A stretch of DNA of 64,000 nucleotides from NCBI RefSeq assembly GCF_003790525.1, contig NZ_CP033635.1. One strand, written 5' to 3'. Source of the DNA: Escherichia coli. Lineage in GTDB: Bacteria > Pseudomonadota > Gammaproteobacteria > Enterobacterales > Enterobacteriaceae. Under the pieces are notes generated by a model. The model was not told the origin of the DNA and made no database searches. It saw only the letters and a program-made list of their open reading frames with translations. Positions 59,158-62,449 of the stretch are shown here, one piece after another. Position numbers and translations under genes: made by a program. How positions within the stretch are numbered: the first letter of the stretch is position 1; every line of letters begins with the position of its first letter.

Positions 59158-59212
59158 TTCCCGTTCGGTAAAATGCCCGATAATGCAAATTACCGGGCAT
59201 TCCTGAACATCA

Positions 59213-60754
59213 TTATTCATCTCTCGCGGTTTTCTCTTCAGCCGCAAGCTGTGTCAAAAAACTCTTCAATAAAATAAACACTACGCCGCAAAGCGGTAGT
59301 CCGGCCAGGATAGAGACCGTTTGTAGCGGTTGCAGACTTTGCGCATCAAGAAGATAGAGTGTGATTGCGACGATTCCGGTCATAATCAACCAAAATGCCA
59401 CGTTCCAGAATGCCGGTTCACTCTCACTATCTGCCCGTTTTTGCGTCGCAAAACCGAGGGCATAACCCACAGTACAGTGTCCGGTAATATATGAAATTAA
59501 TGCTATAGCCCCAAAAGCAACCAAAAACACCTGACTTGCGGGTAGCTGCTCCAGTAAACGAGAAACGACAACGCCTCGCCCTTGTTCGTTAAGTATGGGA
59601 ACAAAATCGATGACATGAGTTGTCTGCAACGATAAGCCGAAATTAGCCAGTACCATGTAAAAAACCATGCATCCCAATGAACCTGCCAGAGTTCCACATA
59701 CAATCAATTGCCGGATCGTCCTTCCTTTTGAAATACGGGCGATAAATAAACCGAATGGGATGGCATACACGACCCACCATGAAAAATAAAATACGGTCCA
59801 CATCTGTGGAAATCCGCTACGACCAATAGCATCGGTACTTAAACTCATCGCTACAAAATTTTGCAGCATCAGGCCGAAACCATCAATTGATTGGTTAAGT
59901 ATAAAAGCTGTCGGTCCACAAATCAGTATTGCCAGTAGCATAAAAATATCGGCACGAATATTCCAGTTACTGGCCCATGCCACACCTTTTTTAAGTCCAA
60001 AAAAGAGAATTAATAATGGCACTAGCGTCCAGATAAAAATAACCATGACATTGATAAACTGCCCGGCAGGATCCAGATGGAACACATGGCAAAATACGGC
60101 AGAAATCATCGGCGTTCCCAGCGCCAGAGACGTTACCGCGCCGCCGAGCAAACCAAACATGTAGAAAAAATTCACACAATGCCCGCAAAAACCATCAGCA
60201 CGTGCCCCCAGACACCCACGGCATAAATCACTGACCTTTAATGAGTTCGTTTTCTTAACATGCATAAACCAACCAATGGGAACGGCACAAATCAGATACC
60301 ATGCCCATGCGGACGGCCCCCAATGGAACATGCCATAAGCAGAGGCCCAACGAGCAGCCTGAGCGCTTCCTGCTGTCGCGCCAAAAGGCGGTTGCTGAAT
60401 GATCCAAATCCACTCTACAGAGGCCAGATATAACAAGCTGCCCCCCGTTCCAGAAGTAAAAATAAGTCCAAGCCAGGTTAACAAGCTGAAGTCAGGCTTT
60501 TCTCCCGACTGACCTAACAAGATATCGCCATAACGTGAGAAGGCCAGCCACAGACAACAAAGTACAACCAGAAAAGTCATGACCAGAAAAATCCCGCCCA
60601 TTTCCCAGGTTAAAAAATGATGTATTTTATTTATATACCGGCTGGTATCTTGTGGATATATCGTCAAACACAGAATGATTACCGCAATAAATAATATTGC
60701 TGGGATAAACACATTCAGTTCAATCAAAGAAAAGCGTTTTTTTAAATATTGCAT
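59213..60754 (-). CDS. BCCT-family (betaine/carnitine/choline-type) transporter
   Basis: ORF 59213..60898 opens on GTG; likely start is in-frame ATG (MQYLKKRFSL...), about 513 aa; polytopic with Trp-rich segments. Confidence 0.6.
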   Translation of the reverse strand: MQYLKKRFSLIELNVFIPAILFIAVIILCLTIYPQDTSRYINKIHHFLTWEMGGIFLVMTFLVVLCCLWLAFSRYGDILLGQSGEKPDFSLLTWLGLIFTSGTGGSLLYLASVEWIWIIQQPPFGATAGSAQAARWASAYGMFHWGPSAWAWYLICAVPIGWFMHVKKTNSLKVSDLCRGCLGARADGFCGHCVNFFYMFGLLGGAVTSLALGTPMISAVFCHVFHLDPAGQFINVMVIFIWTLVPLLILFFGLKKGVAWASNWNIRADIFMLLAILICGPTAFILNQSIDGFGLMLQNFVAMSLSTDAIGRSGFPQMWTVFYFSWWVVYAIPFGLFIARISKGRTIRQLIVCGTLAGSLGCMVFYMVLANFGLSLQTTHVIDFVPILNEQGRGVVVSRLLEQLPASQVFLVAFGAIALISYITGHCTVGYALGFATQKRADSESEPAFWNVAFWLIMTGIVAITLYLLDAQSLQPLQTVSILAGLPLCGVVFILLKSFLTQLAAEEKTARDE

Positions 60755-60777
60755 TTCAGTCTCCTGAATGTTTTCAT

Positions 60778-61002
60778 TCAATGAGGACGAATATTTCGCC
60801 GTTCCTTTTTCATGTGTTGCAATTGTCGGGAAAGGCGTAAAGAAAAAAAGGCGCAAATAAGTGAAAGTACCGCAATACAATACAGAGCTAAACCACACTG
60901 ATGCTGTTGCAGCATGAACAGGAATATCCCCAAAAAGAGGCCGCAGAGAACTGTGGTTATCCAGTAATTGGCACTTAAGTGCTCCAGGTCATCATCCCTC
61001 AT
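60778..61002 (-). CDS. Small two-helix membrane protein (hypothetical)
   Basis: In-frame ATG at 61002 inside ORF 60778..61182, preceded by SD AGGAG (caggagaaagaccATG); 74 aa with two hydrophobic segments; between FAD oxidoreductase and BCCT genes. Confidence 0.5.
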   Translation of the reverse strand: MRDDDLEHLSANYWITTVLCGLFLGIFLFMLQQHQCGLALYCIAVLSLICAFFSLRLSRQLQHMKKERRNIRPH

Positions 61003-61054
61003 GGTCTTTCTCCTGCAAGGCGCAGAGAGGCTTTCAGCTCTCTGCGCCTTGTTG

Positions 61055-62449
61055 TTATGCCAGACGTACGCCCTGCTGTTGCAGCGTGTTTTGCAAATCA
61101 GGAATAGCAACCTGACGCACGGTGCAATGTTGCTGTAGCGAAACCACGGCGGCAGTGCCTGCGGCCTCACCGGTAACGGCACAACACATCATGTTGCGCA
61201 TAGAAGTATGTGCAACTACGCCTGCGGAAATACAGCGACCGGCGACCAAAAGGTTCTCCACTTTTTGTGGCACCAGACAGCCATAGGGGATCTGAAAGAA
61301 ACGCCCGGTCGTTGGCAAAATGAGATAACCGGAACCATCAATAAATTCCGGGAAAATCCCTACACTGTCCGAACAACGCCCCTGATTAAGGACGTAATCA
61401 TCAGCAATACGTATTTCCCCCTCAATAAGCCGTGATTCGCGTGTACCCAGCGTGGCGCCAAAATTGCGTAACCGTACATTTTCAAAGCCCGGAACATAAT
61501 GGCGTAGAGCGTCAATTGCCCATAATGCTTGCTGCCTTCCGGCGATTTCTGCTTTGGTTAAATCGAAGACATCGGTACAGTCAAAACCAAAGGCGTACAC
61601 CATATTCATCTGAAACGCTTCGCCGCTTTCAGAAAAGGTTGACCAGGTTCCGGCAATCGCCTGGGCGTCGCCTGGAATCACACCATCCTGCTGCGCCCGG
61701 GTAAAAATATCCTCCATATAAGGGCTAAACATCTGGTCTTCTTTGCCCGTGGTTTGAATCGTCCAGTTTTTTCCCCAATCCGCGTAGGTCGGCTTAAGTT
61801 CTTCCGCAACAAAACGGTTAAAGCGCGCCACATCGACACCTGCGCAACTGAACATCACGGTGACGCCCATCAGTTGGTCCTTTCCCCGTTTCGTCCAGGG
61901 CGCGCCTGCACGAGCAGCAATATCAGCATCCCCCGTGCAATCGACGATTCTTTTCGCCAGAATTGCCCCTCGTCCTGATTTGTTCTCGACAATAACACCG
62001 CATAACGTATCCCCTTCCTTGATCACATCCACAACCCAGGAGTGATATAACGGCTCAACGCCAGCTTCCGTTATCATCTGATCGGCAACAACTTTAAATC
62101 CTTCAGTATCTATAACTTCGCTAATTGACTGAGGTTCTGGTCGCGTGAAGCCCAATGCTCGCGCGCGGCCTTCATATTCACGACAAATCCCTTCACAATC
62201 TTCCGTCCCCGGATGGCGATACCAGGCAAAACTTTCCACACCAACCTGCGTCAATACGCCGCCTAGTGAGCCGTAACGCTCAACAATCATGGTTCTGGCA
62301 CCTAGCCGCCCCGCCGCTATCGCCGCCGTTAATCCTGCCGGACCGCCCCCGATAACCAGAACGTCCGTTTGTGCAATGACTGGCGTTTGCCGTGCACTTT
62401 CATTAATCATGTCCACCATTGGTTCCCCCATCAGATTCAGGATGCGCAA
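61055..62449 (-). CDS. FAD-dependent oxidoreductase (paralog 2)
   Basis: 464-aa ORF (start may be internal MINESARQ); VIGGGPAGLTAAIAAGRLG dinucleotide-binding motif; paralog of 50516..51886; 13-nt overlap with upstream MFS gene. Confidence 0.7.
   Translation of the reverse strand: MRILNLMGEPMVDMINESARQTPVIAQTDVLVIGGGPAGLTAAIAAGRLGARTMIVERYGSLGGVLTQVGVESFAWYRHPGTEDCEGICREYEGRARALGFTRPEPQSISEVIDTEGFKVVADQMITEAGVEPLYHSWVVDVIKEGDTLCGVIVENKSGRGAILAKRIVDCTGDADIAARAGAPWTKRGKDQLMGVTVMFSCAGVDVARFNRFVAEELKPTYADWGKNWTIQTTGKEDQMFSPYMEDIFTRAQQDGVIPGDAQAIAGTWSTFSESGEAFQMNMVYAFGFDCTDVFDLTKAEIAGRQQALWAIDALRHYVPGFENVRLRNFGATLGTRESRLIEGEIRIADDYVLNQGRCSDSVGIFPEFIDGSGYLILPTTGRFFQIPYGCLVPQKVENLLVAGRCISAGVVAHTSMRNMMCCAVTGEAAGTAAVVSLQQHCTVRQVAIPDLQNTLQQQGVRLA

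Follow-up and report, generated by a model that had tools for sequence, protein, structure and literature searches.

Which elements lie between the FAD-dependent oxidoreductase and BCCT transporter genes of this Escherichia coli locus, where an inverted repeat precedes a short open reading frame (ORF), and what could they contribute to the operon that contains them? The window, the whole 64-kb stretch of DNA that was analyzed, matches E. coli SMS-3-5 at 100%, and the locus corresponds to the cglDTEC operon of the GimA (ibeA) island, flanked by hypT/nhaC/ibeA/dhaR/gcl and further genes and by dhaKLM/iraD. GimA is a virulence-associated island that has been studied in meningitis-causing and avian pathogenic E. 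coli. In its published description, it comprises 14 ORFs, including the cglDTEC operon (PMC2878320), and these ORFs have been published as four operons. Our findings show that GimA has a 15th conserved gene, which is annotated in some strains only. Taken as a whole, the explanation developed here, in which the cgl operon holds one gene beyond the published 14-ORF description, together with the role proposed for its product and for the adjoining hairpin, is the best available to us, and we regard it as moderately probable.

Layout of the cgl operon

The features on which the analysis is based are as follows:

59170..59203, minus strand: 15-bp stem-loop followed by UUUU, 10 nt past the BCCT stop codon (junction fold, -25.3 kcal/mol)
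59213..60754, minus strand: cglC, BCCT-family transporter gene (PF02028), with its own AGGAG at 60765-60761
60778..61002, minus strand: small ORF of 74 codons plus TGA, predicted two-helix inner-membrane protein (sequence, codon analysis and synteny)
61010..61014, minus strand: Shine-Dalgarno AGGAG of the small ORF, 7 nt upstream of the ATG
61016..61051, minus strand: intercistronic stem-loop, 14 perfect bp and an 8-nt loop, with no U-tract 3' of it
61055..62419, minus strand: cglE, FAD-dependent oxidoreductase gene (PF12831), stop codon TAA at 61057-61055
62437..63705, minus strand: cglT, MFS transporter gene, upstream in the same operon
63741..63763, minus strand: second intercistronic stem-loop, between cglD (glycerol dehydrogenase) and cglT (MFS)

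The operon would thus read cglD, hairpin, cglT, cglE, hairpin, small gene, cglC and terminator, and the stem-loop at 59170..59203 is likely the operon end, convergent with a glycerate kinase gene. The ATG of cglC, at 60754, lies 23 nt downstream of the small-ORF stop codon, and no minus-strand promoter-like site was found between cglE and cglC. Both neighbors of the small ORF are of the families that the sequence-only reading had named, a PF12831 FAD oxidoreductase upstream and a PF02028 BCCT transporter downstream. GimA-type islands are regulated by a DhaR-type σ54 activator.

The small ORF is a conserved gene

The small ORF starts with ATG at 61002-61000 and ends with TGA at 60780-60778 on the minus strand. 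Its 74 codons and its AGGAG at 61014-61010, 7 nt ahead of the ATG, agree with what had been read from the letters. A 134-aa version starting at GTG 61182, present in a mechanical ORF list, was rejected because of its overlap with cglE and its unconserved N-terminus. Orthologues all begin with M-R/K-D-D. The possibility that the ORF is a fragment split from the BCCT or the oxidoreductase gene was also discarded, as both neighbors span their full Pfam profiles.

The frame is open, between the same neighbors, in six lineages, namely E. coli, E. albertii, Pluralibacter, [Enterobacter] lignolyticus and two metagenomic ones. Codon counts in these six lineages are 74, 74, 76, 74, 74 and 74, and the sole length difference is an in-frame 6-nt insertion. 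A further lineage, P0014, encodes 73 residues and shares the order MFS, oxidoreductase and small gene on a short contig. Six of the seven other lineages retain a purine-rich Shine-Dalgarno; that of P0014 is weak (GAGAAA). Codon analysis of five lineages gave pN values of 0.11-0.20 against saturated pS values of 0.52-0.80, with omega between 0.05 and 0.14. Within E. coli, the 20 full-length copies that were compared are all intact, and their polymorphisms comprise 10 synonymous and 6 non-synonymous changes. This codon-level comparison shows a protein-coding gene under purifying selection.

The opposite view is that the ORF is not a gene and owes its conservation to that of the island DNA as a whole, or to an RNA or regulatory element within an extended intergenic region. 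It would account for the lack of a RefSeq annotation in SMS-3-5 and in 9 of 14 sampled E. coli genomes, and is in line with our finding no proteomic or ribosome-profiling evidence for the protein. However, synonymous sites are saturated between lineages, yet the frame, the length and the amino acids persist, and the variable columns, 33, 21 and 60 of 74 by codon position, place changes in third positions about two to three times as often as in first or second ones. Moreover, relatives with 30-40% identity are encoded in other bacterial families, within unrelated DNA contexts. We consider this view close to refuted and extremely improbable.

Where RefSeq includes the gene, as in APEC O1, LF82 and LR-28, it is labeled "hypothetical protein," and a literature search for the accessions of the small protein found no mention of them. 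Because the gene is annotated only in some strains, knockout or expression work on cglE and cglC may have affected it without this being noticed. The outcome is an annotation correction and a modest lead, and current understanding is not overturned.

Predicted structure and family of the small protein

The Kyte-Doolittle profile of the small protein displays two hydrophobic peaks, at residues ~15-31 and ~38-55, and an AlphaFold2 model (mean pLDDT 72) places helices at residues 3-32 and 38-71, so that the two hydrophobic helices described earlier are seen by both approaches. The model suggests that the gene encodes a 74-residue helical-hairpin inner-membrane protein. Its N-tail carries a net charge of -3 and its C-tail one of +6; with an acidic N-tail and a strongly basic C-tail, both ends are therefore predicted to be cytoplasmic according to the positive-inside rule.

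Profile searches recovered relatives of 73-84 residues in Enterobacterales and Vibrionaceae, in which N, Y, W and T are invariant. In the small protein, these positions correspond to N12-Y13-W14-x-x-T17, and they belong to a juxtamembrane motif, H-x-x-A/V-N-Y-W-x-x-T, that is conserved in the family. To locate family members in species-representative genomes and metagenomes, we used a degenerate DNA pattern of the motif. In species-representative genomes, it marked eight stretches, seven with a family member and one without, presumed to be a chance match. In metagenomes, half of the 36 stretches found (18) were E. coli GimA copies; the others comprised one E. albertii-type, one Pluralibacter-type and two Photobacterium-type stretches, 13 without a family member, and a last one on an E. 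coli-like contig in which the caller found no small ORF.

This two-helix family of 73-84 residues is undescribed. Scans of 12 family members against Pfam (E <= 1) and NCBIfam had the same outcome, with no family reaching its cut-off; the weak matches below it (DUF4131, DUF7313, LapA_dom, PspM and others) are typical of transmembrane composition. A profile search of PDB sequences returned zero matches, and in a Foldseek comparison of the AlphaFold2 model with the PDB, every match had E > 1 and was a generic helical hairpin or a designed protein. A sharply conserved motif, combined with the lack of a Pfam or NCBIfam model, makes the family a defined target for small-protein research.

Gene neighborhoods across the family

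Within GimA-type islands, the distance from the small gene to the BCCT gene is 23 nt in four lineages, ~60 nt in P0005 and ~220 nt in P0008. In P0014, the first 20 residues encoded by the gene after the small gene resemble a BCCT N-terminus. Outside GimA-type islands, family genes have no adjacent BCCT gene. In Citrobacter NCU1, for instance, the small gene lies between gldA and the FAD oxidoreductase gene with no BCCT gene within 8 kb; its product visibly resembles the small protein of P0014. Similarly, none is present within 7-8 kb in four Vibrio loci. In Serratia sp. L9, a BCCT gene with 50% identity is found in the same cluster, 6.5 kb away.

A different neighbor characterizes the Vibrio and Serratia loci, where a DeoR gene adjoins the small gene, which lies downstream of it, in six out of six cases. 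Four of the six show a 4-nt overlap between the two genes, which implies their translational coupling, and the Vibrio and Serratia DeoR proteins are homologous (32% identity, E 3e-30). The Photobacterium and S. aquatilis copies stand alone as monocistronic genes. Clusters with gldA, dihydroxyacetone kinase, MFS or gcl-hyi-glxR genes recur around family members. Contexts this varied, some of them monocistronic, do not imply any single partner.

Possible roles of the small protein

These contexts suggest that the small membrane protein has an accessory or regulatory part in catabolic clusters of the glycerol/dihydroxyacetone type, where it would modulate one component of the cluster, either a transporter, which here could be CglC or CglT, or the cluster regulator; the latter option is suggested by the relatives that appear translationally coupled to a DeoR repressor gene.

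Small two-helix proteins are encoded upstream of several sodium:solute symporters, as in YjcH/DUF485-ActP, YhdT/DUF997-PanF, DUF4212 and DUF3311. With a size in the range of ~70-100 residues, two transmembrane helices and a gene that immediately precedes a secondary transporter gene of its operon, the GimA protein resembles these subunits; however, the transporter here is a BCCT rather than a sodium:solute symporter, and the adjacency is not family-wide. None of DUF485, DUF997, DUF4212 and DUF3311 was among the Pfam matches shown for the 12 family members at E <= 1. The likeness to symporter accessory subunits that the sequence-only reading had drawn is accordingly unsupported, as BCCT adjacency is also limited to GimA-type islands. 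A second comparison involves GutM, a small membrane-associated activator whose gene, in the glucitol operon, adjoins that of SrlR, a DeoR-family repressor. The relatives in Vibrio and Serratia are likewise small and hydrophobic, and their genes stand next to one for a DeoR-type regulator within polyol-catabolic clusters, whereas the GimA copy has no DeoR neighbor, and the GutM Pfam family is absent among the matches listed for the 12 family members. Small membrane proteins that modulate transporters include AcrZ for AcrB, MgtS for MgtA/PitA, SgrT for PtsG and MgtR/MgtU for MgtB (PMC10710835). By analogy with these, a small hydrophobic protein such as the one studied here may tune the activity or stability of a transporter, although these modulators are mostly of fewer than 50 residues with one helix and share no homology with the 74-residue, two-helix GimA protein.

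Could the protein serve the BCCT transporter CglC as a dedicated accessory subunit, in the manner of the two-helix proteins upstream of some sodium:solute symporters? The small gene does lie directly upstream of the BCCT gene in every GimA-type lineage in which the downstream gene is visible, and the BCCT-like start of the P0014 downstream gene and the BCCT gene of the Serratia sp. L9 cluster point in the same direction. Nevertheless, the protein matches no symporter small-subunit, Pfam or NCBIfam family, close relatives lack a BCCT gene within 7-8 kb (Citrobacter NCU1 and the four Vibrio loci), others are monocistronic, and an insertion of ~220 nt parts the two genes in one lineage; a 2023 review of transporter modulators names no small-protein partner of any BCCT (PMC10710835). 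We therefore consider a dedicated CglC subunit unlikely. As the family does not stand beside a BCCT gene outside GimA-type islands, a dedicated BCCT subunit is unsupported, and this distribution indicates that the small protein is not an obligate one. The true partner might instead be a transcription regulator, with the protein acting as a membrane-embedded modulator or tether of the cluster repressor and the GimA copy having been relocated. The DeoR gene adjacent in all six Vibrio and Serratia loci, overlapping by 4 nt in four of them, the homology of the DeoR proteins of the two orders, and the fact that the best-conserved part of the protein is a predicted cytoplasm-facing N-terminal juxtamembrane motif would agree with such a tether. 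GimA-type islands, however, contain no DeoR gene, their regulator being the DhaR-type σ54 activator, and several family genes are flanked by no regulator or transporter gene; we give a regulator partner a low probability, comparable to that of the CglC subunit. Equally tentative is a wider reading of the accessory or regulatory protein that we favor, as the founding and experimentally tractable member of a small-membrane-protein family (H-x-x-A-N-Y-W-x-x-T) that would link transport to regulation in glycerol/dihydroxyacetone-type clusters and would provide either the first small-protein BCCT partner or a DeoR tether or modulator.

The intercistronic hairpin is kept by compensatory change

The inverted repeat reported between the oxidoreductase stop codon and the small ORF is present and perfect, and it is longer than first described, with a 14-bp stem at 61016-61051. 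Its 14-nt arms, 61016-61029 and 61038-61051, are 100% complementary and enclose an 8-nt loop; the hairpin begins 3 nt past the cglE stop codon and ends 1 nt ahead of the Shine-Dalgarno. The 64 kb contain just one other perfect inverted repeat that combines a length of 14 nt or more with a short loop; the pattern of the hairpin has one match in the window at up to three mismatches and is absent in 100 shuffles of the window. The fold of the junction reaches -31.4 kcal/mol versus -16.5 +/- 3.0 for shuffles (z = -5), with -27.7 kcal/mol for the element alone. An Rfam scan of 60600-61300 at E <= 10 returned only noise, the best E-values of 1.9-6.4 being far below gathering scores.

A hairpin is found at the same junction in eight lineages, with fold z-scores from -1.5 to -5.0. 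Arm sequences change and complementarity stays, while the loop varies from 4 to 8 nt. Across the eight sequences, 9 of 15 pairs have changed on both sides; 82% of cells are paired versus 40-54% when partners are slid, and none of 500 shuffles reached the observed covariation score. At the base of the stem, the pairs C-G, A-U and G-C never vary among the eight. Read on the sense strand, the stems of E. albertii and the P0005 lineage contain internal G-U pairs; the strand test of G-U versus A-C pairs over all 15 columns is a tie, 8 vs 8, and only the in-stem G-U pairs favor the sense strand. Although drawn from only eight sequences, this covariation shows a selected structure whose pairing on the sense mRNA appears to be maintained through compensatory changes.

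Within E. coli, the inner stem is unprotected. The stem is perfect in only 18 of the 246 genomes that have the hairpin, a G-G mismatch occurs in the inner stem of 19 out of 20 copies, with two further changes in some, and the alleles fold at -27.7, -23.9 and -18.0 kcal/mol. Three other identities were considered and rejected. A dispersed extragenic palindrome (REP/BIME or ERIC) does not fit an element found at a single site in each of the 246 E. coli genomes that carry it; an antisense plus-strand terminator would depend on the T-rich run TTGTTGTTAT after the stem, which is not kept in E. albertii or other lineages; and a CsrA-type GGA loop motif was dismissed since the loops are not conserved.

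What the hairpin may do

Intercistronic stem-loops that give segmental mRNA stability include the malE-malF REP, the hairpins of the Rhodobacter puf operon and papB-papA. Like these, the cgl element is a stable stem-loop without a U-tract just 3' of the upstream cistron inside an operon, and the cgl operon has a second stem-loop at another junction; unlike dispersed REP elements, it is single-copy. Its inner stem is eroding within E. coli. By analogy, the most likely role of the hairpin is in mRNA stability or processing between the two cistrons, and the sequence-only suggestion of an RNA-processing site is plausible. The hairpin would act as a barrier or processing boundary that shields either the upstream cglD-T-E segment from 3'-exonucleases or the 5' end of the downstream segment, would determine how strongly the upstream genes are expressed relative to the small gene and cglC, and would leave the adjacent Shine-Dalgarno unpaired.

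The other suggestion of that reading was an attenuator, and a leaky terminator or attenuator curbing transcription into the small gene and cglC would suit a very stable GC-rich stem right after a stop codon, in an operon with a similar stem after cglD. The element indeed shares a GC-rich stem of 10-14 bp and a short loop with Rho-independent terminators and attenuators, but differs from them in having no U-tract after the stem in any of the eight lineages, which weakens this interpretation: on the transcribed strand, the stem is followed by CAGGAGAAAG, with no U in E. coli, and at most three U are found in the eight bases 3' of the stem in any lineage. A terminator scan does not list the hairpin, and the 4-21 nt that separate stop codon and stem showed no alternative antiterminator pairing. 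Attenuation is thus improbable, and from these features we infer that the hairpin does not terminate transcription. Still less credible, in our judgment, is that the palindrome is the DNA binding site of a dimeric regulator, that is, an internal operator. Its symmetry is perfect in this strain and the three stem-base pairs are invariant in eight lineages, which would favor an operator; however, the arms change yet stay complementary, the loop length is variable, in-stem G-U pairs would be tolerated only as RNA, and the minus strand has no promoter-like site nearby.

The second hairpin, after cglD, also keeps its position in other lineages, with different, covarying stem sequences. Two covarying intercistronic hairpins in one operon offer a simple, testable case of within-operon expression tuning.

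A small gene inside the GimA island

The 601 bases spanning the finding are a 100% match to NC_010498.1 (Escherichia coli SMS-3-5). The annotated neighbourhood comprises hypT, nhaC, ibeA, dhaR, gcl, hyi, and the 2-hydroxy-3-oxopropionate reductase and glycerate kinase genes, followed by the BCCT, FAD oxidoreductase, MFS, and glycerol dehydrogenase genes and then dhaK, dhaL, ptsP, and iraD, which identifies the locus as the GimA island. GimA has been described as four operons with 14 ORFs, cglDTEC among them (PMC2878320). Among 5426 complete E. coli genomes, 246 carry the locus, each time as a single chromosomal copy. Between its FAD oxidoreductase (cglE) and BCCT transporter (cglC) genes lie a small gene and a hairpin, both of them real and under selection. 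The features concerned are the following:

60778-61002, minus strand: small gene of 74 codons, ATG at 61002, TGA at 60780-60778
61016-61029 paired with 61038-61051: hairpin of 14 perfect base pairs with an 8-nt loop
63741-63763, minus-strand operon: second intercistronic stem-loop, ACGGCCUG...CAGGCCGU, between the glycerol dehydrogenase (cglD) and MFS genes
59170-59203: 15-bp stem followed by UUUU, 10 nt past the BCCT stop, a probable terminator shared by the BCCT gene and the glycerate kinase gene, which converge here (missed by a simple terminator scan)

The small gene is new to the GimA gene list and to the annotation of this genome, from both of which it is absent; some annotations already carry it as a "hypothetical protein." For instance, RefSeq gives this name to the identical 225-nt ORF in APEC O1 and LF82 (WP_001204018.1) and to the same 225-nt ORF in LR-28 (WP_115439193.1), while the SMS-3-5 RefSeq annotation lacks the ORF and skips locus tag RS24440 between the neighbours RS24445 and RS24435. 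This treatment is inconsistent between strains (window 60778-61002; locus L001, 12155-12456), and the ORF is annotated in 5 of 14 genomes sampled across the ranking.

The sequence-only reading had described a 74-residue ORF with a Shine-Dalgarno sequence and two hydrophobic helices, and this description holds. An AGGAG lies 7 nt upstream of the ATG, hydropathy reveals two hydrophobic stretches (residues ~15-31 and ~38-55), and AlphaFold2, based on a 39-sequence alignment, predicts helices at 3-32 and 38-71 (mean pLDDT 72). The N-terminal tail is acidic (net -3), the six-residue loop uncharged, and the C-terminal tail very basic (+6); by the positive-inside rule, both termini would face the cytoplasm. 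The BCCT gene starts 23 nt past the small gene's stop and has its own AGGAG. A promoter scan found no minus-strand promoter-like site between cglE and cglC, so the operon transcript probably serves both cglC and the small gene. A plus-strand promoter-like site (60968-60995; TTGGCA, 16 nt, CATCAT; 9 of 12 matches) runs antisense to the 5' end of the small gene, inside it; chance is the probable explanation, since such sites are fewer than in shuffles. A mechanical ORF list contains a 134-residue version (60778-61182) with an upstream GTG start and an overlap with the oxidoreductase gene; NCBI contains a 120-residue partial form of this version under the name hypothetical protein (P0001).

Conservation and coding potential

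A protein search identified relatives of 73-76 residues in E. albertii (79% identity), Pluralibacter (69%), [Enterobacter] lignolyticus (68%), and two metagenomic lineages. Conservation alongside the BCCT neighbours, a check set in advance, was found: the order MFS, FAD oxidoreductase, small gene, BCCT is common to all six lineages, E. coli included. Between five of these, synonymous sites of the small gene are saturated (pS 0.52-0.80), as are those of the neighbouring genes (0.39-0.81), while non-synonymous change is 0.11-0.20 and omega 0.05-0.14. Variable columns at codon positions 1, 2, and 3 number 33, 21, and 60, and the sole length difference in the five-lineage comparison comes from 6 nt inserted in frame. 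With omega at 0.01-0.07, the neighbours are under tighter constraint; the small gene is thus moderately constrained, yet clearly protein-coding.

Within E. coli, the gene is intact in all 20 full-length copies (the window strain, three RefSeq strains, and metagenome contigs), among which there are 10 synonymous and 6 non-synonymous polymorphisms, together with one stop-loss variant. The latter, in a single copy, changes TGA to TGC at the position equivalent to 60778, and its product would be about a dozen residues longer, running across the BCCT start. In the metagenomic lineage of P0005 (loci L006 and L007, 6584-7945), two independent assemblies show the FAD oxidoreductase gene in three ORFs; the BCCT start codon is lost (ATA), and the small gene is still intact, with an in-frame two-codon insertion. 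In another metagenomic lineage (L008, 8226-8446), an insertion of ~220 nt lies between the small gene and the BCCT gene and has ends, CCCGTCATACTTCAAGTTGC ... GCAACTCGAATTATTTAGGGTATGG, that resemble an ERIC-type enterobacterial intergenic repeat.

A new family and its gene neighbourhoods

The family was delimited by searching 1.84 billion representative proteins with a profile and then running a second search with a wider alignment. It comprises proteins of 73-84 residues in Escherichia, Pluralibacter, Citrobacter, Serratia, Vibrio, and Photobacterium. They share four invariant residues (N12, Y13, W14, and T17) and four nearly invariant ones (H8, G21, F23, and L24), so that helix 1 opens with the motif H-x-x-A/V-N-Y-W-x-x-T. 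Pfam and NCBIfam scans returned no model at its cut-off, a PDB sequence search gave no match, and a fold search recovered generic helical hairpins only. This is a previously undescribed family with a sharp motif.

The sequence-only reading had likened the protein to accessory subunits of solute symporters. That proposal is not borne out, given the lack of a Pfam or NCBIfam match and the restriction of BCCT adjacency to GimA-type islands, and a dedicated BCCT subunit is accordingly unlikely. In four Vibrionaceae loci (three Vibrio species and one Vibrionaceae MAG) and two Serratia loci, the family gene instead lies directly behind a DeoR-family regulator gene, overlapping it by 4 nt in 4 of the 6 pairs; the Vibrio and Serratia regulators are homologous (32% identity, E 3e-30). 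This arrangement suggests a partner of the regulator, a reading that we likewise consider doubtful, since what recurs across the family loci is a catabolic cluster. An MFS gene together with one for a Zn-dependent alcohol dehydrogenase is visible in three of the four Vibrionaceae clusters; the two longer loci additionally show a gldA-like gene and a gene for a fused dihydroxyacetone kinase, and a BCCT gene was seen in none of the four over the distance covered (up to 7 kb). In Serratia, the cluster goes on to gcl, hyi, glxR, and a dhaR-like gene, with a BCCT gene (50% identity) 6.5 kb away. The order in Citrobacter sp. NCU1 is gldA, small gene, FAD oxidoreductase gene, and a different MFS gene, and no gene for a BCCT transporter occurs within 8 kb. 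The family gene has only unrelated genes around it in Photobacterium species and Serratia aquatilis. The recurrent theme of the gene order is a glycerol/dihydroxyacetone/glyoxylate-type catabolic cluster with no particular transporter. The best-supported position is broader than either partnership: the protein would be a small accessory or regulatory membrane protein of such clusters. That the family is not tied to BCCT transporters and is instead often coupled to a DeoR regulator gene is a new observation.

In Citrobacter sp. NCU1 (L025, 6127-6342), where this gene set takes a third order, spacers of ~400-480 nt flank the family member on either side. In Serratia sp. L9 (L015, 7514-13542), where the gene caller left large parts uncalled, the gcl, glxR, and dhaR-like genes are each in two or three ORF pieces, which represent either assembly frameshifts or pseudogenes.

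A hairpin maintained by compensatory change

The inverted repeat reported by the sequence-only reading between the oxidoreductase stop and the ORF is present and perfect, with a stem of 14 bp rather than 12. It begins 3 nt past the stop codon and finishes 1 nt ahead of the Shine-Dalgarno sequence. The pattern is absent from shuffled sequence, and the junction folds at -31.4 kcal/mol, compared with -16.5 +/- 3.0 in shuffles. A stem-loop occupies this site in all eight lineages examined (two E. coli alleles, E. albertii, Pluralibacter, [E.] lignolyticus, and three metagenomic), with arms that vary in sequence: GGCGCAGAGAG/CUCUCUGCGCC, GAAGACAGAGAG/CUUUCUGUCUUC, ACAGGGCGCC/GGCGCCCUGU, ACAGAGAGUG/CACUCUCUGU, and ACAGGGAAG/CUUCCCUGU. 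In a MAFFT alignment, 9 of 15 pairs have changed on both sides, 82% of cells are paired (40-54% once partners have been shifted by 1-3 columns), and the observed covariation score was reached by none of 500 shuffles. The base of the stem has three invariant pairs (C-G, A-U, and G-C), and the G-U pairs inside the stems of E. albertii and the P0005 lineage are consistent with the sense RNA.

Within E. coli, the perfect stem is an unusual form: the exact 56-nt junction occurs in only 18 of the 246 genomes, and in 19 of the 20 copies compared a C-to-G change produces a G-G mismatch, with one or two extra substitutions in the inner 3' arm of some. Across alleles, the stability of the element falls from -27.7 to -23.9 to -18.0 kcal/mol, and the outer 8-bp GC-rich stem is unchanged.

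No U-tract follows the stem in any of the eight lineages, and the hairpin is missing from the output of the terminator scan; it is therefore not a canonical terminator. New here is that the hairpin is kept by compensatory change without being a terminator. It is single-copy per genome and matches no Rfam family, and it is a familiar kind of element, whose role is suggested by analogy with known intercistronic stem-loops. As such, it would act as a barrier or processing boundary, setting how strongly upstream and downstream genes are expressed relative to each other, and it may hold the adjacent Shine-Dalgarno sequence accessible. The site of the second stem-loop, between cglD and the MFS gene, is kept in E. 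albertii and two metagenomic lineages with differing stems (ACAGCCUC/GGGGCUGU and ACAGCUCGC/GCGGGCUGU).
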